Assembly (NCBI GenBank): GCA_011174795.1
Contig: DUEY01000007.1
Coordinates: 70-64,069, forward strand
Length of the DNA stretch: 64,000 bases
Origin: Dehalococcoidia bacterium
GTDB taxonomy: Bacteria > Chloroflexota > Dehalococcoidia > SZUA-161
Direction: 5' to 3'
In this document: piece after piece, positions 3 to 58,914 of the stretch
How positions within the stretch are numbered: the first letter of the stretch is position 1
How the letters are laid out: the number at the start of each line of letters is the position of its first letter
Notes under the pieces: model-generated
The model's input: only the letters and a program-made list of their open reading frames with translations
Databases searched by the model: none
What the model was told of the DNA's origin: nothing
Translations under genes and position numbers: made by a program

Positions 3-2168
3 CTCTATGAACAGGACATCACCGGCTTGAGAGAATCATGGAACTGGGATGATATCAGAGACTCAGCATTCGGCGTATCCCTGAAGATGAACGCATTCCT
101 GAATACTACCGGATGCACTCAGGTCTATATGGAAGTCGACTACGCAGGGCCCGAGGGCACAGGCTCAGTGGCGCAGAGAAATCACTGGCCTGTACACGTT
201 ATCTATCAGGACAGCGAGTTCTCCGTAAAGCCCCAAGTTGTGGTTGTGGACCTCGACGGTGACGGACTGAACGATGTGCTCACGCAGACGGAGCAGGACA
301 TCTACTACTTCAGGAAGACAAGCATCGATCCGGTACAGTGGGATATGATTGTTATCGAGAAGGACCCGGCGGCACAGTACTTTGCCAGGACGCTCAAGGT
401 AGCGGACCTCAACGGCGATGGCAAGCTCGATATCTTCGGGATGCTGGTACATGAAGATGCCATCATTCCCCCCGACAAAGCTGCTGCTTTCTGGATGGAG
501 TACGGCGGCGATGAACCGCTGGCAGACAACTGGACGACTCACGCAATTAAGTGGGGCTCGGGCCAGACAAACGTCCTTGCCGAGTTCGGTGAGAAGTGGG
601 ACCAGGCCGATGTCATCGACGTTGATGGCGATGGCGACCTGGATATAGTAGCCAACTGCGAGGAGTGGTGGGAGGACGGCTGGGGTATATATTCGTTCTG
701 GGACCCCAATGCGAGTTCCGCCACCGCTGCCGTGGTGTGGTTCGAGAACAGACTCGATGAAGAACCATATACGTTCGATGATATGAGCGGAATCTCCGAC
801 TCCAGCGATATAGTACTGGAGGGAGGGGTTGTCAAGCTTGCAGGCGGGCTAGGGGAAGAAGTCATAGCCTTTTCCGATGACTTTGAAGGACCGCAGGCGC
901 CCTGTTATAGCTGCCTTGAGCAGTGGCATGGTGGTAACTGGGGGTGTGTCAAGAACCAGTCTCAAAGCCCTACTCAAAGCGCGTGGGCAGGCGAGAGCCA
1001 TGATGACTTCTTCTACACCGACGAGATAGACCTGTCAGACGCGACAGAAGCATCGCTCGAGTTCTGGTACAGGCATTACGGCACCGACACCGATGATTTC
1101 ACCCTTTACTTCTATGACGGAACCGGAGGTGAATTCCCGGCCGGCTGGAATATAATGGACGAGTTGGGCCGACGGGGAGCAGACAACCAGTGGCATCAGT
1201 ACAGCATTCCAATAGATATCGGTACTTATGGCATTCCTAACTTCGAGATAGCGTTCGACGCCGACCTTGGATGGGTGTTTCCCTTCGTCCAGGAACAGGC
1301 ATGGATTGATGACGTAGTAGTGACCAAGCGCACAGAACGCGCAACGTTAGGCGCTCTCACATCCGTGACCATTGCCCCTGACAACCTGGACACGTGGGGC
1401 ACGTTTACCGCGACGCACACATTGCCAGCAGGAACCGACATCATCTATAGCATCCTCGATGCCAGTTGCGACTGTGAGATAGTCAGCATCACTGCCGCCC
1501 AGGCGGCTGCAGGGTATGATATGTCGTCAACAGTGGAGGCTAGCTCGATCAAGCTGCGTGCCATCCTGACAGGTGACGGCACTGCCACGCCGATGCTGGA
1601 TGAATGGCAGGTGACGTGGTCAGATGGCTCACCAACACCGTGTAGCTGGAATGACACGTTTGACGGCCTCTGCGTCATAGAAGCGGAAAACTACACCGAG
1701 TTGTATGACGGCACGTGGGTGAAACGTGCCAACTATGAAGGCTACGGTGGGGATGGCTATATGCAAGACCACAATGCAATACAGGCTGGTGCCTACGCGT
1801 GGAACGACACTGAGGGTCTGGAATATGCCTTCGATGTCAAGGGTGGTCTTTATTACCTCTGGGCGCGCCAGTGGGTTCCTGCGAAATGGGGCTTCGGCCT
1901 CGCATTTCTCGGAGGCCAGAATTCCAATTCGGCGTGGATTGGCCTGGATGGCGAACCTATTAATGCTGCCCTTGATAGCGGCAACGGCGGATTCGATGAG
2001 TGGTACTGGATACATAACAGTATCCCCATCTACCTGTCGCCAGGTACTCACACCATAAATCTGCGCGTTAGTGAGGGAGGATATGCCCTGGACAAGGTCA
2101 TTTTGACGCCCGATGTCGCTTTCGTGCCATCCAGCGAGGGGCCATGCGTAACGCTTTATAACCCTTGA
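3..2168 (+). CDS. FG-GAP/VCBS-repeat protein with a C-terminal carbohydrate-binding-like domain (5'-partial)
   Basis: ORF 27..2168 stays open in frame up to the window edge. It carries repeated Ca-binding DxDGDG motifs (DLDGDGLNDV, DLNGDGKLDI, DVDGDGDLDIV) typical of FG-GAP/VCBS blades. The C-terminal segment (CVIEAENY...YYLWAR...) resembles CBM/malectin-type modules. Confidence 0.6.
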   Translation, partial: LYEQDITGLRESWNWDDIRDSAFGVSLKMNAFLNTTGCTQVYMEVDYAGPEGTGSVAQRNHWPVHVIYQDSEFSVKPQVVVVDLDGDGLNDVLTQTEQDIYYFRKTSIDPVQWDMIVIEKDPAAQYFARTLKVADLNGDGKLDIFGMLVHEDAIIPPDKAAAFWMEYGGDEPLADNWTTHAIKWGSGQTNVLAEFGEKWDQADVIDVDGDGDLDIVANCEEWWEDGWGIYSFWDPNASSATAAVVWFENRLDEEPYTFDDMSGISDSSDIVLEGGVVKLAGGLGEEVIAFSDDFEGPQAPCYSCLEQWHGGNWGCVKNQSQSPTQSAWAGESHDDFFYTDEIDLSDATEASLEFWYRHYGTDTDDFTLYFYDGTGGEFPAGWNIMDELGRRGADNQWHQYSIPIDIGTYGIPNFEIAFDADLGWVFPFVQEQAWIDDVVVTKRTERATLGALTSVTIAPDNLDTWGTFTATHTLPAGTDIIYSILDASCDCEIVSITAAQAAAGYDMSSTVEASSIKLRAILTGDGTATPMLDEWQVTWSDGSPTPCSWNDTFDGLCVIEAENYTELYDGTWVKRANYEGYGGDGYMQDHNAIQAGAYAWNDTEGLEYAFDVKGGLYYLWARQWVPAKWGFGLAFLGGQNSNSAWIGLDGEPINAALDSGNGGFDEWYWIHNSIPIYLSPGTHTINLRVSEGGYALDKVILTPDVAFVPSSEGPCVTLYNP

Positions 2169-4201: not shown

Positions 4202-4230
4202 TTGACAGCCCTGTCCCATTGCCCTATAGT
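4202..4230 (+). promoter_or_regulatory. Sigma70-type promoter of the parA-like operon
   Basis: TTGACA, a 17-bp spacer, then TATAGT, about 28 nt upstream of the ATG at 4259. Confidence 0.55.
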
Positions 4231-4258
4231 AGGGGCGTATCATACCCGGCGGTTGCCT

Positions 4259-5017
4259 ATGCTCACTATAGCAGTCTCCAACCAGAAGGGTGGCTCGGCC
4301 AAGACAACCACTGCCATCAACGTCGGGGCAGCGATTGCCGAGGGCGGTAAACATGTCCTCCTGGTAGATGCCGACCCCCAGGGACATCTCGCCGAGGGCT
4401 TCGGTATCGACGCAGGTGCCCTTGATAAGGAAATCTCCATGGTACTGGACGGCAATCTCTCGCTGCGGGAGATAATCATCAGTGTCCGGCCCAACCTCGA
4501 CCTGGCTCCCAGCAACATCAAGCTGTCATACCTCGAGGCATCCCTCTTCACCAGACACCGCCGTGAGGACAAGCTCAAGAACGCCCTGTCCGCGGTTAAG
4601 AACAGCTACGACTTCATCATTATCGACTGCCCGCCCAGCCTGGGTCTGCTTACCGTGAACGCCCTGTCCGCTGCCGATTGCGTTCTCATAACTATGGTGT
4701 GCGAATTCTACGCCATGCTGGGCGTCAGCCTGCTGCTGGATGTGATCGAGGAGATGAGGGTTGAGCTCAATCCCTCCCTCCACATCCTCGGCATCGTCCC
4801 CACCCGCCTCAACCGCACAATCCACGCCCGTGAGGTCCTGGAGCGCACTAAAACAGAGCTCGAGGGCCGCGTCAAGGTATTCGAGCCAGCGGTAAACGAG
4901 AGTGTGCGCTTCAAGGAGGCAGCGGCTGCCGGCCAGACTATATTCGAGTACGCGCCCGATATCAAAGGTGCGGAGGCCTATCGAATCATAGCTAAGGAGA
5001 TTGCCGATGGACTCTAA
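4259..5017 (+). CDS. parA: ParA/Soj-family partition ATPase (no N-terminal HTH)
   Basis: Deviant Walker A motif NQKGGSAKTT at the N-terminus, DADPQ, and IIIDCPPSLG. I placed the start at MLTIAVSNQKGG; the ORF-track start at 4202 overlaps the promoter. Confidence 0.85.
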   Translation: MLTIAVSNQKGGSAKTTTAINVGAAIAEGGKHVLLVDADPQGHLAEGFGIDAGALDKEISMVLDGNLSLREIIISVRPNLDLAPSNIKLSYLEASLFTRHRREDKLKNALSAVKNSYDFIIIDCPPSLGLLTVNALSAADCVLITMVCEFYAMLGVSLLLDVIEEMRVELNPSLHILGIVPTRLNRTIHAREVLERTKTELEGRVKVFEPAVNESVRFKEAAAAGQTIFEYAPDIKGAEAYRIIAKEIADGL

Positions 5018-29625: not shown

Positions 29626-31539
29626 TTACGGGAGCAGGTGTTTCAGGTGAGGGAAGGTATCCTCCATATGGGGGAACCACATGGCCTGAGTGAATACCTT
29701 GTTGAAGCCGGGCTCAACGGTCAGCTCTCTGTATTCTACCCGTCTCGCCACTTCGTCGGCTTCCGCTCGCTTGTCCACATTAAGCAGGGCGATGCGTGCT
29801 CCGTCGCCGGCGGCATTGCCAACGGCGTAGACATTATCTAAGGCACAGTCGGGGAACAGCCCGATAACCGCTGCCGCCTCTTTATCTATATAACTGCCGA
29901 AGGCTCCCGCCAGAATGACTTTGTCCAGCCTCTTTACGCCCAGGTGTTGCATCATTATCTTCGCCCCGGCGTACATGGCACCCTTAGCAAGCTGTATGCT
30001 CCTCACATCCTGCTGGCAGACGACGATGTCTCCGCCGATGGCTGTCTCACTCGCCCAGGCGATGACGAACTCCGGTCCCTCGCCAGAGACACGCAGCCGG
30101 CGGGTTTCCACGTCTTTGTTGAAACGCCCGCTCCGGTCTACGATACCCGCCCTTAACAGTTGGGCTGCGGCATCTATTATCCCCGAGCCGCAGATACCCC
30201 TCGCCCCCGCATCCTCCAGTTCGGTGCTCCATCCATCCCTGCCGATAACCTTGAAGCGCACCTCCATGGTGTCAGAGTCTATCTCTATCCTCTCTATGGC
30301 GCCGGGGGCGGCGCGCATTCCGTGCCTTATGCTGGCTCCCTCGAAGGCAGGCCCGGTGGCGCAAGAGGACGAGAGCAGCCTACCCCGGTTGCCCAGTATC
30401 AACTCGCCGTTGGTGCCGACGTCTATTATCAGCACTACGTCGTCCTGATTATAGGGCTCCTCCGCAATGAGCACACCCACGTTGTCGGCGCCGACGAAGC
30501 CAGCCTCTATGGGAAGGACATGCACATATGCCCCGGGAGCTATCCTGAGCCCAAGGTCGCGAGCCTTGAAATCCAGCGAGCGGTGTACGCTGGGGGTGAA
30601 GGGAACCCTGCCCAGATACCGGGGATCGATATTGAGGAAGAGATGGTGCATGCAGGTATTGCCCACGACTGCCATATCGACGATGGCCCGCCGCTTGACA
30701 CCGGCATGGGCAGTCGCCCGCCCCGCGATGTGATTGATGGTCTTGATTATCAGCTTATGCAGGCGCTCGCAACCGCCCTTATGGTTCATCGTATAGCTGA
30801 TGCGGGACATCACGTCCTCGCCGTACTCCGCCTGCGGATTAGCCTCGGATTCGGTGGCTATGACCTCGCCGCTTGCCAGGTCACAGAGATAGCCTGCCAC
30901 CGTAGTCGTCCCTATGTCCACCGCCAGCCCGTAGCCTTTATCGACGAGTCCGGGCTTTACCCTGATGACCTCGCTGCCCTTCCACACCCACACGGTTACC
31001 TTCCAATCGCCCTTCCGCACCACTCCCTGCAAGCCCGCCAGCACCCGGTAGTCAATAGTGAGGTTGTTCAGGCCGAACCCGCTTTCGAGCTCGGCTGTCA
31101 GCCGCTCCCAGTCACCCGTGGCGTCATCCAGGGTGGCGGGAGTCATTTCAACGTAATACCTTGTCACCGCCGGCTTCAGATCAATGGCCCTCTCCGTAGC
31201 CGCCTTGCGTATTATCTGCTTCACCGTCCGGCTCTCCTCAGGCACGAAGACGGCAACGTCGCCGTGGATACGAGCCTGGCAGGCAAGACGGTAGCCGTCG
31301 CGCCGTTGCCGTGCGCTCAACAGCTTCATCTCTGCTTCATTCACCGGGGAAAGGGCATCCCCGCGCGACTCGACCCTGACCCGGCACTTACCACAGGTAC
31401 CCCTATCGCCGCAGATGCCCTCAATGCCCACTCCCAGTTCCCTGGAAGCCTCTTTGATAGTCTTCCCATCGCCGACAGAGGCTCGACGCCCCATGGGTTT
31501 GAATATAACCTTATGCTCACGTCTCTTGCTTCGCGGCAT
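29626..31539 (-). CDS. RACo-like ATP-dependent reductive activator of corrinoid proteins (2Fe-2S ferredoxin plus ASKHA/DUF4445 domains)
   Basis: N-terminal plant-type 2Fe-2S motif CGDRGTCGKCRV, and a C-terminal ASKHA-fold region (DIGTTTV, IDVGTNGE). Start placed at MPRSKRREHKV, which has GGAAGG upstream. Confidence 0.75.
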   Translation of the reverse strand: MPRSKRREHKVIFKPMGRRASVGDGKTIKEASRELGVGIEGICGDRGTCGKCRVRVESRGDALSPVNEAEMKLLSARQRRDGYRLACQARIHGDVAVFVPEESRTVKQIIRKAATERAIDLKPAVTRYYVEMTPATLDDATGDWERLTAELESGFGLNNLTIDYRVLAGLQGVVRKGDWKVTVWVWKGSEVIRVKPGLVDKGYGLAVDIGTTTVAGYLCDLASGEVIATESEANPQAEYGEDVMSRISYTMNHKGGCERLHKLIIKTINHIAGRATAHAGVKRRAIVDMAVVGNTCMHHLFLNIDPRYLGRVPFTPSVHRSLDFKARDLGLRIAPGAYVHVLPIEAGFVGADNVGVLIAEEPYNQDDVVLIIDVGTNGELILGNRGRLLSSSCATGPAFEGASIRHGMRAAPGAIERIEIDSDTMEVRFKVIGRDGWSTELEDAGARGICGSGIIDAAAQLLRAGIVDRSGRFNKDVETRRLRVSGEGPEFVIAWASETAIGGDIVVCQQDVRSIQLAKGAMYAGAKIMMQHLGVKRLDKVILAGAFGSYIDKEAAAVIGLFPDCALDNVYAVGNAAGDGARIALLNVDKRAEADEVARRVEYRELTVEPGFNKVFTQAMWFPHMEDTFPHLKHLLP

Positions 31540-31723
31540 GATACCTTCCGCCTGTAGCTGACTGTAAATCCCCTGCGGCCTAGAATAAAGCAACACTGCA
31601 ACTGGCTCAAGGGGCATGGAGAATTACCTCGATAGAATAACGGCGTGAGAAAACGAGAGGATTTACCTGCGCTCTGGCTCTCGATTCCTTCCAATAAGAG
31701 GTGTGAGGCGTGCTTTAGAGCCT

Positions 31724-50836: not shown

Positions 50837-50978
50837 TTATTGTTCCCTTGATAAAAGGGATAAGAGTAATCCCCCTTCCTCGAAGAGAGATTCAGGGGGA
50901 TTATGCTTTATACCCGGTTTAAAGATATGGCGAGTATGTCGAGGCTATGCGATAAAGTGCCTAAGCGCCGCCGCGGTA

Positions 50979-51227
50979 CTACTGATACGGTCTGCGAATG
51001 GGCTTGTCTGTAGCCCACCGCCCCAGGAGGTAGAACGAGAAACCGAGAAGCCAGATGAGAATGGAGCTTATTGGAGCCAGGGGAATGATAGACTGGTACG
51101 GCAATAGTGCCCCATCTCCTTCTGCCCCTGATGGTATCAGGGAGATTACACCCACGATAAAGCATAGCAGTATAAGGATAAACCAGAGCCGTTTTACCCG
51201 AAACCTTTGTATCATGCTGTCATGCAA
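50979..51227 (-). CDS. Small two-TM membrane protein co-transcribed with the CetZ-like gene
   Basis: Starts 4 nt after the upstream stop codon. Two hydrophobic helices (LWFILILLCFIVGVISLI and ISSILIWLLGFSFYLLG). No recognisable family. Confidence 0.5.
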   Translation of the reverse strand: MHDSMIQRFRVKRLWFILILLCFIVGVISLIPSGAEGDGALLPYQSIIPLAPISSILIWLLGFSFYLLGRWATDKPIRRPYQ

Positions 51228-51231
51228 ACCT

Positions 51232-52344
51232 TTACTCGGATTCTGCTTCCAGTTCCAGCGTAGACGCCTTTATACTCACAGGCGGCTTGACGTTATTGAT
51301 GCTAACGCCTAACCTGGGGATGTTATTGTAGCCTGCTAGCATCACTACACCAGCCACCGAGTCCCACCCCCTGATGGGGCAGTCTCCACCTCTCACCTCG
51401 TGCGTTGCTATGGAACTCTCCAGCCAGCTCTTGGCGTGGGAGAAGCCTTCCATATTGAGCTCGTCCGGCGGCCCGGCGATAATCATCAACGCCTTCTTGG
51501 CTTTGCTTATATCACAATCACCGGTCAGCCTCAGCGTGGCGGCGTTCCGTATCGCCGTGTAGCACCTCATAGCCGGGCTCAACTGGTCTATGGAGGTCTT
51601 CTTCTTCCAGAAAAGGAACCTGTCACGCACATTCTTGGTCTTCATCTCCGAATAGCCGATATAGCTGAACCCCTCCCATGAATTGATGATGTCGGAGGCG
51701 TCAATAACCTTGATCCCTACCCTGTCCTTCTCCGTCTCACCGGCACCGAGCATCAGGGGCAGTGGCTTCACCAGCTCGTGGTTCATGATGCTGTAGCTTG
51801 TCTCGAGCGGGAGCCCCTCCTTCTTCCAGACGTCGTTGTCGAACAGGAGGATACCGTTAACCTTACCATCCACCTCCTGAAGGCATTCGATAGCGTTCAT
51901 GGACATCAGCTTCCCCTCGTCCTCACTGGGGAGAACGCCTATAAAGTAGATTGGCTCCTCGTAGACCTCCCTGAGCTTGGAAACGATCACCGGCGATCCG
52001 CCGGAGCCAGTGCCGCCGCCGAGCCCCGCGATGACCAGAAAGCCGTCTATGTGATGGAGAACCTTCTCCGTAACCGAGTGCATGACCGAATGCAGCCCGT
52101 GCTTGGCCACCTTCTCCCCCACCTTGCGATTCAGCCCCACTCCGTGTCCCTTCACGACTGTCTGCCCAATAAGGATTCTATCCTTCTTCTGTATCGTTTT
52201 CAGTCCCAGCAGGTCAGCCTGCGCTGAATTGACAGCGATAACAAAGGGGACGATCCCCTGGTGCCTACCCCATAAACTGTGGTAGCTCAACAGGTCCGCA
52301 ATCCTGCCCCCAGCCTGACCGATACCTATAACACCAACCCTCAT
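51232..52344 (-). CDS. Tubulin/FtsZ-superfamily GTPase, CetZ-like
   Basis: GIGQAGG N-terminal loop. Tubulin signature AGLGGGTGSGGSP. AVNSAQADLLGLK, VKGHGVG, LFDNDVW, VIDASDIIN and EVRGGDCPI follow the archaeal CetZ pattern as I recall it. The FtsZ-type GGGGxNA and NVDFAD motifs are absent. Strong RBS GGAGGTG. Confidence 0.75.
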   Translation of the reverse strand: MRVGVIGIGQAGGRIADLLSYHSLWGRHQGIVPFVIAVNSAQADLLGLKTIQKKDRILIGQTVVKGHGVGLNRKVGEKVAKHGLHSVMHSVTEKVLHHIDGFLVIAGLGGGTGSGGSPVIVSKLREVYEEPIYFIGVLPSEDEGKLMSMNAIECLQEVDGKVNGILLFDNDVWKKEGLPLETSYSIMNHELVKPLPLMLGAGETEKDRVGIKVIDASDIINSWEGFSYIGYSEMKTKNVRDRFLFWKKKTSIDQLSPAMRCYTAIRNAATLRLTGDCDISKAKKALMIIAGPPDELNMEGFSHAKSWLESSIATHEVRGGDCPIRGWDSVAGVVMLAGYNNIPRLGVSINNVKPPVSIKASTLELEAESE

Positions 52345-52394
52345 TTTTCACCTCCAGTTGACAGATACACTATAAATATAAATACCAGCGACCC

Positions 52395-52424
52395 AGTTTA
52401 ACATAAAAATGAAGCTGTTGTCAA
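52395..52424 (-). promoter_or_regulatory. Probable promoter of the CetZ-like operon
   Basis: On the minus strand: TTGACA, an 18-bp spacer, then TAAACT, about 50 nt upstream of the ATG. Confidence 0.4.
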
Positions 52425-52543
52425 TACCTACTCGTCTCAGGGCATTTACTAACACCGATTATCCCCGCATCCACGCAAAGACCCTCATGAAGAAACCGAC
52501 GTTAGTAAATACTCTAAGTAAGCCCTGCCATTGTTAAACTGGC

Positions 52544-52575
52544 AAAAGCCGCCCGCCAAAAGACGGACGGCTTTT
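52544..52575. terminator. Bidirectional-looking rho-independent terminator after the 206-aa gene
   Basis: AAAAGCCGCCCGCC-aaaa-GACGGACGGCTTTT: a GC stem flanked by an A-run and a T-run, 25 nt downstream of the stop at 52600. Confidence 0.7.
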
Positions 52576-52599
52576 GTTACATACTTTGAATCAAGCGCT

Positions 52600-53220
52600 T
52601 TATACTCTGCGCCGCATGCTCATCACTGCCACGCCTATCGCGATGACAGCGAGAACCAGCGCAACTATCGGTAATGCCATTCCACCTGGTGCGTCTTCTC
52701 CCGGTATACCTTGATCACCCTGCGGTCCAGCGGCACCTGCGGGGCCTGTGGCTCCAGCGGGGATTGTCAGAGTGAGCACACCAGTTTCGGCATCGTAGTC
52801 CGCATCTGCAGGGCTACCTGTTACTACCACTACTGATGTGATCAGCCCACCCTCCTCCGGTCCCGTGCCGATGGTAAGGTCAAGTTCCTTATTGCCGCCG
52901 GCCTCGAAGGTGCTGGTCGCTACCTGTGTAGCACCGACCTTGAAGCTTACTGCCGCACCTTCGCTGTAATTCGTGCCCTCAGGTGGAGTTATCTCCAGCG
53001 CATACGTCCCGGCGCCGTAGACCGAGGGAGTGGAAGCGGTATACTCATCCCCCTCTATCGTGGCCGATACTACAGTGTCGTCAGGCGCAGGATCGCCGTA
53101 TATGGTCACGTCGCCATAGAACCGACACGGTAGCTGCAACCCTCCTTGTGCAAAAGCCATAGCCGGGAAGAGGAGAAGCGCTACCACTGCTAGCACAACC
53201 AATACTCTCACTTTGGTCAT
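52600..53220 (-). CDS. Secreted, C-terminally membrane-anchored protein with a short collagen-like (GXY)7 segment
   Basis: Signal peptide ending AFAQ. A beta-rich N-domain. GATGPAGAAGPQGDQGIPGED gives seven consecutive GXY triplets (nt 52693..52755). C-terminal TM helix plus an RRRV tail. Confidence 0.7.
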   Translation of the reverse strand: MTKVRVLVVLAVVALLLFPAMAFAQGGLQLPCRFYGDVTIYGDPAPDDTVVSATIEGDEYTASTPSVYGAGTYALEITPPEGTNYSEGAAVSFKVGATQVATSTFEAGGNKELDLTIGTGPEEGGLITSVVVVTGSPADADYDAETGVLTLTIPAGATGPAGAAGPQGDQGIPGEDAPGGMALPIVALVLAVIAIGVAVMSMRRRV

Positions 53221-53296: not shown

Positions 53297-55330
53297 TTAT
53301 CTCCAGCCTATGTTATTCCAGCCCGCCTTCAGGTCGTAGCTGAAACCGCCAAAGATCAGGGTGCAGTCCTCGGTTACCTTGATCCAGTAGCCCCTGCCGG
53401 GAGTGAGCGACATCAGGTCGCTGCCGACGGGGTCTGCCGGGTCATACATCTGCCACTCGCCGTCGTAGTAGCCCCATACCCTGACCAGCTTGCCGGAGAT
53501 GCTTGCCGTGGCAACCGCTACGGTGTCAGGCTCCTCTTCAACGGTGAAGAACGTTGTCGCGGTCTCACCAGCAGCGGTGGCCCGCACCACAATCGCGCCT
53601 TGCGGCTGGCCGGGACAGGTGGCCGTGTATTCGAAGGCTCCGAAGCGGTCGGTCAGCGGCTTGTCCGCGAACTCGGCGGTGCCGAACTGAATCGTAACCG
53701 AAGTGTAGGCTCCGAACCCGTCTCCGCTTATCGTCACCTGGTCAGTTCCCGGCACTCCGGACGTCGGGCTCACGGCGATTGCCGGAGGCGGTACCGTATA
53801 TTTCACCGGTTCCGCTTGATTGCCTACAACCTCGACACCAACCTCATTGATGACCATATCGGCGGCTCTTACCTCGTTGTTGGCCCCCCTGTTGGCATCA
53901 GCGGGAACCACCAGCGTAGCGCCGAAGGCGCCGTTGGCATCGGGAATCGAGGTAACGGTGCGGGCAGTGGCCCCCTGGAAGGTTATGGTCACCGGATTGT
54001 CGGGCACCCAGCCTGCGCCGGTTATGGTTATCGTCGTTCCCCTTGGTCCCGTAACCGGGTTCACGGAGATCGTCGGCTTTGTTACCGTGAAGGTGCCGAA
54101 GGCGCTCAGATTATCGAGAAGTGTATTATCGTCGTAATCCGCGCCGCCGTCCATCGCCTGTATCGTGTTAGCTCCTATCGGGAGCCGTTGACCACCCGCC
54201 TCCTCAGCAGGGATTACGAATGTCGTTGGGCTTATCGAGCCGGTGGTATCGATCTCTATCGCCCCAGGCTGTATGCCGCCCGGGTTCAGGGAGATGTTAG
54301 TGGCGATGACAAGATCGTTAACATCGATTATGCTCATGTTGGGAGGCGCGCTCGGGGTCATATCCTCGCCGAGCAGCATAACAGTGGTCCCCAGCGGACC
54401 GCTGCTCGGGCTGAGCTCCAACACGCGGGGAAGAACGGTGAAGGTCGTCTCCGCAGTGTTAGGCGTTAGAGCGGTATCAGTACCCTCAACCTTCTTCACG
54501 CCGGGAAGCTGTGCCGGAGGTATCGTCACCCCCGGGTCGTCTATCACGCCGTTGGCATCTGCAGTAACTGTATCCCAGAACGCTCCCGCGAAGAAAAGGG
54601 TGACAGCGCCCGTCTCCCAGCCGCTTCCTTTCACCGTCACATCGTCGCCAGCAAGTGCGCTGCTCGGGCTCATCGTCAGCGTCGGCGTAACTTTGAAAGT
54701 ATCTGCATTCCCAGCAACTGAAGCAACTGCGCCCGCTCCATCTATGGCATCAACTACCTGGTCCCCGGCTCCAAGCAGCGGTATAGTGCCTGTAGCCGTG
54801 AAGCTTCCGTCAGCCGCAACAGGAACGCCGCTGGCGAAGGTCTGTCCGCCGACGGTCACAAGGGCGGTCACGCCGGCTGCAAATCCGGAGCCGGTTACCG
54901 TGGCGCTCGAGGCCACAGTTCCCTGCACCGGTGATATGACAACCTTGGGCTCAACCTGGATCCAGTTAAGACCCTGCAATGTGTTGACACCGTCGGTAAT
55001 CGTGACCTTATGGTCTCCCCACTCCGCAGCCGGAATCACTATACCGAACGTTGCTTGACCCGCAGGGACTATGCTCCCATCGCCAGTTGTCACCGTTGCT
55101 GGCGACGTTGTTAGCTTCACCCCGTCCATGGTAATGGTCAGTATAGCGCTCGGGAGGAAACCGGTTGCTACTATATTAACTGACTGTCCTACGGGCCCTG
55201 AAACTGGCGGTGGCGCACCGTTGAACGTAACAGTCTGTGCACCGGCTGGCGCTATAGTTATCGCCAGCAGGCTGCATACCATCGCCAGCACCACCAGCAC
55301 CCGTACAGTATTTGGAAATCTCTTCCTCAT
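53297..55330 (-). CDS. Secreted protein built of Ig-like (IPT/TIG-type) repeats; S-layer/envelope candidate
   Basis: Signal peptide. About 7 repeats of the pattern P..GP.G..VT..G.GF....V.I.F.G, with a Thr/Val/Gly-rich beta composition. The C-terminal GRGYWIKV...GWNNIGW segment is unassigned. Confidence 0.65.
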   Translation of the reverse strand: MRKRFPNTVRVLVVLAMVCSLLAITIAPAGAQTVTFNGAPPPVSGPVGQSVNIVATGFLPSAILTITMDGVKLTTSPATVTTGDGSIVPAGQATFGIVIPAAEWGDHKVTITDGVNTLQGLNWIQVEPKVVISPVQGTVASSATVTGSGFAAGVTALVTVGGQTFASGVPVAADGSFTATGTIPLLGAGDQVVDAIDGAGAVASVAGNADTFKVTPTLTMSPSSALAGDDVTVKGSGWETGAVTLFFAGAFWDTVTADANGVIDDPGVTIPPAQLPGVKKVEGTDTALTPNTAETTFTVLPRVLELSPSSGPLGTTVMLLGEDMTPSAPPNMSIIDVNDLVIATNISLNPGGIQPGAIEIDTTGSISPTTFVIPAEEAGGQRLPIGANTIQAMDGGADYDDNTLLDNLSAFGTFTVTKPTISVNPVTGPRGTTITITGAGWVPDNPVTITFQGATARTVTSIPDANGAFGATLVVPADANRGANNEVRAADMVINEVGVEVVGNQAEPVKYTVPPPAIAVSPTSGVPGTDQVTISGDGFGAYTSVTIQFGTAEFADKPLTDRFGAFEYTATCPGQPQGAIVVRATAAGETATTFFTVEEEPDTVAVATASISGKLVRVWGYYDGEWQMYDPADPVGSDLMSLTPGRGYWIKVTEDCTLIFGGFSYDLKAGWNNIGWR

Positions 55331-56159: not shown

Positions 56160-57068
56160 ATGACGGCGAAGATAATCTCAGGCACCGAGGTAGCAAAGGA
56201 AATTCGCGCTGAACTACAGGAAAGGGTCACGAAATTGAAGGCGGAAGGGGTAACCCCGGGGCTGGTCATGATCCGCGTCGGCGATGACCCCGCTTCCGTC
56301 TCCTATGTCACGGGTAAAGAACAGGCCTGTGAGGAGGTCGGAATATGGTCCGAGACCTACGTTATGCCCGAGAGCGCCTCTGAGGACGAGCTGCTGGCCA
56401 AGGTGGCGGAGATGAACAAGGCGGAGCATGTCGACGGCATCCTGGTTCAGCTCCCCGTGCCCAAACATATCGACGCGGACAAGGTGCTCAACCTTATCGA
56501 CCCTGCTAAAGATGTCGATGGATTCCATCCCATCAACGTCGGTAAAATGCTCATCGGGGATCCTTACTTCATGCCCTGCACCCCTCACGGCGCGGTGGAA
56601 CTGATGGTGCGCAGCGGCAACAGCCCCGAGGGCAAGCATGTCGTCATCTGCGGCCGCAGCAATATCGTGGGCAAACCCCTCATGGCGATGCTGGTGCAGA
56701 AGAAACCCCATGCTAACGCCACCATAACAGTCGTCCATACCGGAACGAAGAACATGTCTGAAATCACACGGCAGGCGGACATACTCGTCGCCGCCATGGG
56801 CTCCGCCGAGGTCATCAAAGCGGACATGGTCAAGGACGGGGCAGTGGTAATCGATGTCGGCGTCAACAGGGTAGGCATGAAGCCCAGCAAGAAAGACCCC
56901 ACTAAGATGGTCGCAGATCTCAGGGGCGATGTTGACTTCGAGGCAGTCAAGGAGAAGGCAAGCGCTATCACTCCCGTTCCCGGCGGCGTGGGACCAATGA
57001 CCATAACCATGCTGATGATGAATACGGTGGTGGCCGCCGAGAGGCGCGCCGCCCGCTCTAAAAAATAA
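56160..57068 (+). CDS. folD: Bifunctional methylenetetrahydrofolate dehydrogenase / methenyl-THF cyclohydrolase
   Basis: Full-length FolD pattern (PGLVMIRVGDDPAS..Y, VQLPVPKHID, CTPHG, GRSNIVGKP, TPVPGGVGPMT). RBS AAGGAGG. Confidence 0.9.
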   Translation: MTAKIISGTEVAKEIRAELQERVTKLKAEGVTPGLVMIRVGDDPASVSYVTGKEQACEEVGIWSETYVMPESASEDELLAKVAEMNKAEHVDGILVQLPVPKHIDADKVLNLIDPAKDVDGFHPINVGKMLIGDPYFMPCTPHGAVELMVRSGNSPEGKHVVICGRSNIVGKPLMAMLVQKKPHANATITVVHTGTKNMSEITRQADILVAAMGSAEVIKADMVKDGAVVIDVGVNRVGMKPSKKDPTKMVADLRGDVDFEAVKEKASAITPVPGGVGPMTITMLMMNTVVAAERRAARSKK

Positions 57069-57150
57069 CGCGGTAACAGGCAATTTAACGAGTTCCTCAG
57101 GTGAAGGATATCTCGTTTAAAAATTAGAAGCCAATTTAAGGAGGTTTTCT

Positions 57151-58914
57151 GTGGCATACGATGCAACTAAGATGAAGGACTGGCAGATCTCGGAAGCTGC
57201 CGAGGCTAACATGCCCACCCCCGATGAATGGCGGGAAAAGCTGGGGCTGGAGAAGGACGAGCTTATCCCCTTCGGGAGAACACCCAGGCTCGATTTCATC
57301 AAGATTATCGAGCGCCTCAAGGACAAGCCCGATGGCAAGTACATCGAGGTGACTGCCATCACTCCCACGCCGCTTGGTGAAGGAAAGAGCACCACCTCAA
57401 TGGGCCTGCTGGAGGGGATGGGAAAGCGTGGTCTGAATGTAGGCGGCTGCCTGCGCCAGCCCTCGGGTGGCCCTACCATGAACATCAAGGGCACCGCTGC
57501 CGGCGGAGGCAATGCGCTGCTCATCCCCATGACGGAGTTCTCTATGGGACTCACCGGCGACATCAACGACATCATGAATGCCCACAACCTGGCGATGGTG
57601 GCCCTTACGTCCAGGATGCAGCACGAGCGCAACTACAACGACGAGCAGCTCCAGCGGCTCACCAGGATGCCCCGCCTCAACATCGACCCCACCAGGGTGG
57701 AGATGGGCTGGATCATGGACTTCTGCGCCCAGAGCCTGCGCGACATCACCATAGGTCATGGCGGGCGCATGGACGGCTTTCTGATGCAGTCCAAGTTCGG
57801 CATAGCGGTAAGCTCCGAGCTCATGGCCATGCTCTCCATCGTCAGGGACCTGGCGGACCTGCGTGAGAGAATGGATAACATCACGCTAGCCTTCGATAAG
57901 AGCGGCAAAGAGGTTACCACGGGCGACCTGGAGGTGGGCGGCGCCATGACCGCCTGGATGCGCAATACCATCAACCCTACATTACTCTGCACGGTAGAGT
58001 ATCAGCCCTGTATGGTGCACGCCGGTCCCTTCGCCAACATCGCCGTGGGCCAATCGTCCATCATCGCTGACCGTATCGGTCTGAAGATGTTCGACTATCA
58101 CGTAACAGAGAGCGGCTTCGCCGCCGATATCGGCTTCGAGAAGTTCTGGAACGTCAAGTGCCGCCTGAGCGGCCTCAAGCCGCATGTTTCCGTACTTACG
58201 AGTACGATACGGGCGATGAAGATGCACGGCGGCGGGCCCAAGGTGGTAGCGGGAATTCCACTGCCCGAAGAGTACACCAAGGAGAACCTCGGCCTCCTGG
58301 AGAAGGGCCTGGCTAACATGGTGCACCACATCGGTGTTATTCGGGAATCGGGCATAAACCCGGTTGTCTGTGTAAACTGCTTCCACACCGACACCAAGGA
58401 CGAAATCGCAATGGTCCGCAAGGCTGCTGAGGAGGCAGGGGCACGCTGTGCCGTATCTACCCATTGGGCCGACGGCGGCGACGGCGCCCTGGAGCTGGCC
58501 GACGTGGTCAAGGAAGCCTGCGAGGAGAAGAACGAGTTCAGGTTCCTCTATCCTATGGAGATGAAACTCAGGGAGCGGGTCGATAAGATCGCCAGGGTGG
58601 TCTACGGCGCCGACGGCGTGAGCTGGACCCCTGATGCTGAGGCCAAGGCCAAGTCTCTTGAGGGCGACTCCAAGTACGATGATTTCGCCACCATGATGGT
58701 CAAGACCCACCTGAGCCTCACCCATGACCCTGCGTTGAAGGGCGTGCCCAAGGGTTGGACTTTACCAATCCGCGATGTATTAATCTACTCCGGCGCCAAG
58801 TTCCTCTGCCCCTGCGCTGGCACTATCAGCCTGATGCCTGGAACAAGCTCCGACCCCGCATTCAGAAAGGTCGATGTCGATACCAAGACAGGCAAGGTAA
58901 CGGGGCTGTTCTAG
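57151..58914 (+). CDS. fhs: Formate--tetrahydrofolate ligase
   Basis: [12 protein letters not shown]-loop signature and full-length FTHFS similarity. GTG start preceded by AAGGAGG. Confidence 0.9.

Follow-up and report, generated by a model that had tools for sequence, protein, structure and literature searches.

How does a bacterial chromosome come to carry a gene for a cytoskeletal protein of archaeal type, and what might that protein do there? The question is posed by a stretch of 64,000 nucleotides from a Dehalococcoidia bacterium (GTDB lineage Bacteria; Chloroflexota; Dehalococcoidia; SZUA-161; GenBank assembly GCA_011174795.1, contig DUEY01000007.1, positions 70 to 64,069), which we call the window. 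An earlier note, made from the sequence without database searches, had singled out in it an open reading frame (ORF) of 370 codons resembling CetZ, the tubulin-superfamily GTPase described as a cell-shape protein of archaea, and directly downstream a small ORF with two transmembrane (TM) segments. We find that the 370-aa protein is a bona fide member of the CetZ family with an intact GTP-binding site and T7 loop, and that its gene is chromosomally resident and vertically inherited in Dehalococcoidia. A conserved two-TM gene accompanies cetZ on the same strand in two main paralogues and three distant Chloroflexota subclades, and it also stands beside cetZ in Hecatellales archaea. From these observations we develop a reading in which the two genes would encode a filament system and its membrane partner, and we weigh that reading against its rivals.

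The window protein is a member of the CetZ family

Profile hidden Markov models (HMMs) separate the protein clearly from FtsZ. It matches Pfam Tubulin (PF00091; E 3.5e-28, 99.6 bits against a cut-off of 33 bits) and, across profile positions 4-171 of 180, CetZ_C (PF21011; E 5.5e-38, 130.7 bits against a cut-off of 21.6), whereas the FtsZ equivalog of NCBIfam, TIGR00065, matches the N-terminal half alone and reaches 80.3 bits against a cut-off of 295.2. FtsZ_C was not matched in the Pfam search, and the FtsZ-like family Tubulin_2 (PF13809) remains below its gathering score (16.8 against 27 bits). With the equivalog score so far under its cut-off, the protein does not fall inside canonical FtsZ.

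Comparison with solved structures gives the same order. The protein is 40% identical to Haloferax CetZ1 across 356 residues (BLASTP, E 2e-85), and a phmmer search of the PDB ranks CetZ1 first (4b46; 285.7 bits, E 5.4e-84), followed by CetZ2 (4b45; 179.7 bits, 8.7e-52) and Methanosaeta CetZ (3zid; 67.8 bits, 9e-18). The best FtsZ follows with 52.5 bits and E 1e-13 or weaker, TubZ with ~37 bits (E ~1e-8, N-terminal domain only) and BtubB with E 2.4e-7 over ~100 residues. An AlphaFold2 (AF2) model based on an alignment of 32 relatives has a mean predicted local distance difference test score (pLDDT) of 86 and a predicted template-modelling score (pTM) of 0.86. A Foldseek search of the PDB with this model returns 4b46 first (template-modelling scores 0.81/0.90), then CetZ2 and Methanosaeta CetZ; ranks 1-4 are all CetZ, and FtsZ comes below every CetZ with a query-normalized score of ~0.68. 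Thus profile scores, sequence ranking and Foldseek order agree with the original assignment as CetZ-type rather than FtsZ-type, and no FtsZ fits the model as well as the solved CetZ structures do. Membership of the FtsZ, FtsZ-like/Tubulin_2, TubZ and tubulin families is ruled out by the HMM scores together with the gene context. A tblastn search at E <=0.01 found no second tubulin-family gene in the window.

The motifs of the nucleotide-binding site can be followed residue by residue. In a motif alignment, T1 reads GIGQAGG, T4 reads GLGGGTGSGG and T7 reads V-I-D215-A-S-D218-I-I; GIGQAGG and the tubulin signature AGLGGGTGSGGSP, both reported at first sight of the sequence, are present in the 370-aa ORF. 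T4 is 90-100% conserved across the aligned relatives, as is the T7 pair D215-x-x-D218 across the clade. D218 aligns with E218 of CetZ1, a conservative Glu-to-Asp difference at a catalytic residue whose mutation blocks CetZ1 function (bioRxiv 10.1101/2024.04.08.588506). With these motifs conserved, the protein is predicted to function as a GTPase. The CetZ1-like stretches listed in the earlier note are borne out by HMMER and BLASTP comparison with 4b46 (AVNSAQADLLGLK, RILIGQTVVKGHGVG, FDNDVW, VIDASDIIN, LMIIAGPPDELN and EVRGGDCP), and the hallmarks of FtsZ are lacking, as it had said: GIGQAGG and VIDASD occur where Methanocaldococcus jannaschii FtsZ has GCGGAGN and NVDFAD.

Two further elements, the M-loop and the tail at the C terminus, bear on how such a protein might meet a membrane or a partner, and in CetZ1 both the M-loop tip and the tail are needed for function (bioRxiv 10.1101/2024.04.08.588506). 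The M-loop of the window protein is long and of the CetZ1 type, with a hydrophobic tip, RFLFW (clade consensus F.FF), and the insertion that forms it is missing from CetZ2, 3zid and FtsZ in the motif alignment. Such a long M-loop, hydrophobic or amphipathic at its tip (LLSRL in CetZ1), is characteristic of the CetZ1 subfamily (bioRxiv 10.1101/2024.04.08.588506). The acidic tail, STLELEAESE, had initially been likened to the partner-binding tails of FtsZ and tubulins, and here the first impression did not survive. The tails that follow the IPRLG motif vary in length, charge and sequence even between ~80%-identical orthologues, which rules out the acidic tail as a docking peptide, and residues 356-370 are disordered in the AF2 model (pLDDT <50).

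The gene is resident in Dehalococcoidia and belongs to a Chloroflexota clade

Housekeeping genes occur throughout the window, among them hrcA-grpE-dnaK, fabH, recJ, recG, folD/fhs, RACo and genes for arginine and histidine biosynthesis and for ArgRS/TrpRS, so the all-bacterial neighbourhood seen at the outset is confirmed. Two assemblies made independently, from ENA and JGI respectively, contain an identical protein flanked left and right by the same genes. When one genome per species was scanned, 17 cetZ loci were located, all in metagenome-assembled genomes (MAGs) of Dehalococcoidia/Chloroflexota, and the genomes concerned include a closed Dehalococcoidia chromosome of 2.14 Mb (CP070819.1). 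The gene order TIG, 206-aa protein, cetZ, two-TM partner, metallo-beta-lactamase (MBL) hydrolase, SSS symporter, FabH and HrcA is kept in ~10 Dehalococcoidia MAGs, and the GC content of the cetZ region matches that of its flanks with no compositional break. Four MAGs hold two or three cetZ copies, and a second paralogue is located between RNase HII/UbiA and an ABC transporter. What the window gene lacks by comparison with other CetZ genes is an archaeal host; this is a matter of distribution and not a molecular criterion.

The family to which the protein belongs is sizeable. More than 50 clusters at the 90% identity level share 72-94% identity with it, and 89 representatives at the 50% cluster level match at E <=1e-30. 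A neighbour-joining (NJ) tree was computed from 135 sequences with M. jannaschii FtsZ as the root and 200 bootstrap replicates. Here a clade of 20 members that includes the window protein has bootstrap 100, and so does the clade of 50 members within which it is nested; the named sequences in the larger clade are all Dehalococcoidia or Chloroflexota. In two subclades without names, represented by our loci L029 and L030, the genes around cetZ are bacterial: L32p/YceD/NusB/ACP in one subclade, ComEA/ComEC/IspH in the other. The window protein thus belongs to a Chloroflexota-only clade that has diversified and, in several MAGs, is represented by 2-3 paralogues per genome.

The closest named outgroups of this clade are archaea of the TACK group (Thaumarchaeota, Aigarchaeota, Crenarchaeota and Korarchaeota), namely Hecatellales, Nitrososphaerales and Conexivisphaerales. 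It is with these sequences that the window protein groups, while CetZ1 and CetZ2 of Haloferax volcanii (HvCetZ1 and HvCetZ2) sit in a separate 45-member group; the NJ distance is 0.74 between HvCetZ1 and HvCetZ2 and 1.06 between the window protein and HvCetZ1. Within Archaea the family is widespread, and the bacterial sequences with names that we recovered all come from Chloroflexota. Descent from an ancient exchange with TACK-type archaea is the most likely origin to judge by these sequences, and we infer the direction of transfer from the distribution alone, the deep nodes being poorly supported.

The extent of duplication is illustrated by one contig of a more distant Chloroflexota MAG, GCA_040754215.1 (L025, 5947..12466), on which a single strand carries a gene for an 864-aa TIG protein and three tandem CetZ-like genes (390, 371 and 358 aa). 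There a 73-aa two-TM partner overlaps the stop codon of the third cetZ, and a little further on come a ParE toxin pair and smpB.

A conserved two-transmembrane gene accompanies cetZ

The two-TM ORF downstream of cetZ is a real and conserved companion of that gene, although its dimensions need correction: the 82 aa and the 4-nt spacing originally given belong to an alternative TTG start, and the gene most likely begins at a conserved ATG that yields 78 aa and a 16-nt spacing. The product from this ATG is 100% identical to G4O13_02835 of NCBI (78 aa), from a Dehalococcoidia MAG, and members of the family counted in the same way are ~70-78 aa long. They share the motif W..P...C...G....IP in the first TM segment, a loop LPYQS.IPLAP, and W...G..Y.LGRW.T.RP.R.P in the second TM segment and the basic tail that follows it. 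Pairwise differences at the three codon positions amount to 0.385/0.207/0.572, the pattern expected of coding sequence under purifying selection. The AF2 model has helices at residues 5-26 and 44-69 (pLDDT 68), and the basic ends, read by the positive-inside rule, point to a topology with both termini in the cytoplasm. The partner has no Pfam or NCBIfam match, and the whole family makes up 49 clusters in a database of 5.8 billion proteins, none with a Pfam domain and essentially all labelled 'hypothetical'.

The co-occurrence that the earlier note proposed to test is borne out well beyond the window. Of 19 Dehalococcoidia loci, 16 have the partner directly 3' of cetZ, with both main paralogues represented, and it recurs in distant relatives. 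With a partner profile, matches were obtained in L025 (the ORF that follows the third of its cetZ genes), in L022 (an ORF beside cetZ) and, at E 1e-16 to 1e-18, in L029 and L030, two loci from outside the profile-building set whose ORFs abut or overlap the stop of cetZ. In Hecatellales, the profile matches an ORF on the convergent strand beside cetZ in L020 and L021, and one ~1.4 kb downstream in L031. The start of the partner overlaps or abuts the cetZ stop in L014, L016, L026, L025, L029 and L030, which suggests translational coupling of the two genes.

Two cetZ copies that stand without the partner, L013 and L017, have a convergent ORF of 53-58 aa immediately 3' (L013, 5205..5366(-); L017, 699..875(-)). 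These small ORFs are similar to one another and look like coiled coils, with the pattern LIEEK..L.TQLVQ.Q.ML..ID, and they may represent an alternative small partner of a third paralogue.

Locus architecture and envelope neighbourhood

The features of the cetZ region are collected in Table 1. The promoter-like site, the ribosome-binding site and the flanking hairpins described for cetZ at the outset are all present, although a terminator scan listed neither hairpin and both were recovered as inverted repeats. The hairpin beyond the partner is a candidate bidirectional terminator, and the one on the other side of cetZ probably separates the cetZ unit from an upstream unit of envelope-protein genes.

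Table 1. Features of the cetZ region, in window coordinates
Feature	Coordinates	Strand	Description
cetZ-like gene	51232..52344	-	370-aa tubulin-superfamily GTPase; ORF, Pfam, PDB and model evidence
Partner gene	50979..51215	-	78 aa, two TM segments; conserved, NCBI-annotated ATG; 16 nt past cetZ stop
Alternative TTG start of partner	50979..51227	-	82 aa, 4 nt after cetZ stop
Shine-Dalgarno GGAGGTG	52349..52355	-	4 nt 5' of cetZ ATG; read from sequence
Sigma-70-type promoter-like site	52395..52424	-	TTGACA-18 nt-TAAACT, TG before the -10 hexamer; 10/12 matches; a consensus match only
Hairpin	50862..50908		15-nt arms, 87% complementary; between the convergent partner and MBL-hydrolase genes
Hairpin	52543..52576		13-nt arms, 92% complementary, 8-nt loop; just past the stop of the 206-aa gene
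206-aa predicted surface protein	52600..53220	-	signal peptide, collagen-like G-x-y run GATGPAGAAGPQGDQGIPGEDAPGG, C-terminal TM anchor then RRRV
677-aa secreted IPT/TIG-domain protein	53297..55330	-	Pfam TIG, 1.5e-10; first gene of the upstream envelope unit
Promoter-like site of envelope unit	55499-55470	-	consensus match

That cetZ adjoins envelope-protein genes, another of the first observations, is correct, and the two genes upstream are syntenic: the TIG gene accompanies cetZ in L003 and L005-L011, and is also found 5' of the triple cetZ of L025, while the 206-aa gene is kept in L003-L012. The envelope genes are nevertheless probably a separate transcription unit, because they have their own promoter-like site and are followed by a hairpin. 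The 206-aa protein has no family match in Pfam or NCBIfam; its C-terminal end resembles the anchoring of S-layer-type surface proteins. Near archaeal cetZ copies lies a SlaA-like S-layer gene (~1120 aa), and the recurrence of TIG and SlaA-like neighbours is suggestive, though only suggestive, of a link between cetZ and the envelope.

The archaeal neighbourhoods have features of their own. On contigs of Hecatellales type (L020, 1728..12960; L021; L031), cetZ and the convergent partner lie between a Vps4/CdvC-like AAA+MIT cluster and the SlaA-like gene; in L031 an MreB/crenactin-like gene follows ~1.8 kb downstream, and upstream there is a fragment resembling Cas12f/TnpB. On the euryarchaeal contig GCA_964501105.1 (L032, 4543..7171), a gene for a YdjM-family membrane hydrolase ends 3 nt before the start of a CetZ1-like gene, the stop of which is overlapped by a convergent gene for a PKD-domain surface protein; this neighbourhood is unlike the Chloroflexota module.

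Elsewhere in the window, no ftsZ, mreB or mur genes were found within the 64 kb. A ParA/MinD/MipZ-type ATPase (AAA_31, 5.6e-57) is encoded at 4202..5017(+), ~46 kb from cetZ. In Haloferax, MinD proteins position CetZ1; nothing here links the two genes of the window. The presence of RACo, which serves corrinoid activation, together with FolD and formate-tetrahydrofolate ligase (29626..31617(-) and 56160..58914(+)) suggests Wood-Ljungdahl-type C1 metabolism in this MAG. A 713-aa ORF at 27..2168(+) has no match in Pfam (E 1e-8) or NCBIfam (E 1).

Possible roles of CetZ and its partner

Any functional reading has to take account of the envelope of these bacteria. In Dehalococcoidales and SAR202 the peptidoglycan genes of the division and cell wall (dcw) cluster are gone, mraZ-mraW-ftsA-ftsZ are kept, and the wall is S-layer-like (PMC10608941). 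Against this background, the reading we favour, with some confidence though well short of certainty, begins with an ancient transfer of the family from an archaeon into Chloroflexota, possibly already as a two-gene module. The resident CetZ-like protein would polymerise with GTP into dynamic filaments beneath the membrane, like Haloferax CetZ1. The two-TM partner, with both termini in the cytoplasm, would recruit or anchor these filaments through its basic tail, GRW.T.RP.R.P, and/or couple them to the envelope through its short outer loop, LPYQS.IPLAP. The system would shape or organise the envelope and not divide the cell, an assignment we make because related Dehalococcoidia without peptidoglycan, with an S-layer-like wall, keep ftsZ and ftsA for division. 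For the CetZ-like protein itself, a GTP-dependent filament system under the membrane, concerned with envelope or shape organisation rather than division, seems the most likely function. The idea that the two-TM protein may be a membrane tether for CetZ is reasonable, since its gene is the conserved partner of cetZ.

A more ambitious version can be entertained only tentatively and, we think, is rather doubtful as a whole. It holds that the two-TM protein is a dedicated anchor or coupler of CetZ, and that the module moved between TACK archaea and Chloroflexota and in the latter diversified into two or three paralogous systems that organise an S-layer-type, peptidoglycan-free envelope.

Several observations weigh against the favoured reading of a tethered, envelope-organising CetZ of archaeal origin. 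The envelope genes stand in their own transcription unit, and adjacency is weak functional evidence. The wall-less or S-layer context and the retention of ftsZ are drawn from the literature on related Dehalococcoidales and SAR202 (PMC10608941) and not from this genome. The partner is not universally required, because some cetZ copies stand without it: it is not beside cetZ in L013, L017 and L023 (Dehalococcoidia subclade locus), nor in L028 of Nitrososphaerales, in L033 or in the CetZ1-like euryarchaeal L032. In the archaeal loci that do have it, the partner is convergent to cetZ and not co-transcribed. A dedicated tether may moreover be unnecessary, because Haloferax CetZ1 binds liposomes alone in vitro (bioRxiv 10.1101/2024.04.08.588506). 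Lastly, the deep nodes of the NJ tree are weakly supported (bootstrap <=51), and the direction of transfer is not fixed.

The liposome binding and the partner-less cetZ copies lend themselves to an alternative in which the CetZ filament reaches the membrane unaided, for example through the hydrophobic tip of its M-loop, and the two-TM protein is not a tether but a regulator, inhibiting or modulating assembly, or a passenger, such as an envelope protein whose only tie to CetZ is the common operon. The tip is indeed conserved here; the C-terminal tail, to which anchors usually dock in FtsZ, is not. We nevertheless consider this alternative unlikely, though the most serious of the rivals. The pairing persists across CetZ proteins ~46-54% identical to the window protein, in independent contexts and across a domain boundary, and the partner starts often overlap the cetZ stop; a mere passenger role is hard to reconcile with both. 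In addition, conservation among the soluble parts of the partner is strongest in its basic tail, which is predicted to face the cytoplasm.

A role in division is less plausible still, and we regard it as improbable. The CetZ-like protein would in that case replace FtsZ or work with it at the septum, and the two-TM protein would be an anchor like FtsA, ZipA or SepF. A tubulin-superfamily GTPase with a small membrane partner is formally analogous to FtsZ with ZipA, many of these proteins bear the annotation 'cell division protein' or 'cell division GTPase FtsZ' from the NCBI and JGI pipelines, and in Hecatellales L020 cetZ adjoins Vps4/CdvC-like division genes. Against this role stands the FtsZ equivalog score of 80 against 295 bits, and the context of cetZ is not dcw-like, the genes around it encoding surface proteins, an MBL hydrolase and a symporter. 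For related Dehalococcoidia, ftsZ and ftsA are reported to be kept (PMC10608941), and in Haloferax rod shape and motility require CetZ1, while it is FtsZ1 and FtsZ2 that divide the cell. Several paralogues per genome also suit an accessory function better than an essential single-copy one.

Non-FtsZ genes of the tubulin superfamily in bacteria are often TubZ or PhuZ of plasmids or phages, and TubZ chains are among the weak PDB matches of the N-terminal domain, yet a TubZ-like DNA-segregation or mobile-element cytomotive system sitting in the chromosome is highly improbable, given that no TubR-like DNA-binding gene, integrase or other mobile-element gene adjoins cetZ, that the one small gene beside it is that of the two-TM protein, that housekeeping synteny is stable in ~10 MAGs, that GC equals the flanks and that the C-terminal domain is CetZ_C. 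The chance of an assembly chimera, or of archaeal contamination of a bacterial bin, is vanishingly small even though CetZ is normally described as archaea-specific (e.g., PMC11621097): the identical gene with bacterial flanks in two independent assemblies of different source, the synteny shared by the closed chromosome and a dozen other MAGs, and the even GC rule it out.

Relation to earlier work

The occurrence of CetZ in bacteria is not in itself new. CetZ-like sequences in Chloroflexota-Dehalococcoidia, matched by a CetZ C-terminal HMM, received one earlier mention, by Santana-Molina et al. 2023 (PMC9871819), and these are almost certainly the same proteins as those described here. The main text of that paper says nothing on whether the Chloroflexota sequences have a partner gene, paralogues or synteny, or on what they do. 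Relative to the same text, the group is not sparse in our data, and it forms one clade with bootstrap 100 and is not paraphyletic. CetZ papers from 2024-2026 continue to call the family archaea-specific (e.g., PMC11621097). In our literature searches, neither the function of a bacterial CetZ nor a membrane partner of CetZ was the subject of any paper, and none reported the two-TM gene, the paralogous copies, the stable synteny or the surface-protein genes that recur nearby; no partner of the two-TM kind is described in the CetZ1 preprint (bioRxiv 10.1101/2024.04.08.588506).

Our findings show a CetZ family that is firmly established, diversified and vertically inherited in one bacterial lineage, and they single out a tiny, unnamed membrane protein as a candidate CetZ partner. 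In the literature we found, it is still unsettled how CetZ filaments connect to membrane and envelope. Where a bacterium has an archaeal-like envelope, as reported for related Dehalococcoidia, and also carries an archaeal-type shape cytoskeleton, the combination bears on the co-evolution of envelope type and cytoskeleton and on the transfer of cytoskeletal genes between domains. If the more ambitious version is true, an archaeal-style cell-shape system would be at work in bacteria alongside FtsZ.

Comparison with known systems

The natural reference for the window protein is CetZ1 (4b46) and CetZ2 (4b45) of Haloferax volcanii, with which it shares the Tubulin plus CetZ_C architecture, the T1 motif GxGQAGG and the T4 motif GGGTGSGG. 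With CetZ1 it further shares an acidic residue at the catalytic E218 position of T7 and a long M-loop with a hydrophobic tip. It differs from both in its bacterial host, in having Asp at T7 where CetZ1 and CetZ2 have Glu, and in falling into a different clade of the NJ tree, a tree whose deep nodes are poorly supported. CetZ1 also has a conserved hydrophobic tail, LESLF (bioRxiv 10.1101/2024.04.08.588506), whereas no tail is conserved here, and the CetZ1-like gene of the euryarchaeal contig L032 has no two-TM gene beside it.

Closer likenesses are found among TACK archaea (Hecatellales/Bathyarchaeia, Nitrososphaerales and Conexivisphaerales), in which CetZ-like proteins annotated as 'tubulin/FtsZ family protein' are ~45-51% identical to the window protein and have the T7 pattern VG.KV.DASDI and the same type of M-loop. 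Hecatellales loci resemble the window in placing a two-TM partner beside cetZ, but there the partner lies on the opposite, convergent strand and the neighbours are SlaA-like, Vps4/CdvC-like and crenactin-like genes. In the Nitrososphaerales locus examined, the partner is absent.

The logic proposed for the two-TM protein is that of FtsZ with FtsA, ZipA or SepF, in which a filament works with a membrane-associated partner encoded nearby. Unlike those anchors, the partner described here has no detectable homology to a named family, and the CetZ-like protein has no conserved C-terminal docking peptide. BtubA and BtubB of Prosthecobacter offer a parallel of another kind, a non-FtsZ cytoskeletal protein of the tubulin family in one bacterial lineage, and their presence there is usually explained by horizontal transfer. 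BtubA and BtubB, however, are true tubulins, whereas the window protein is of CetZ type and has its nearest relatives in archaea.

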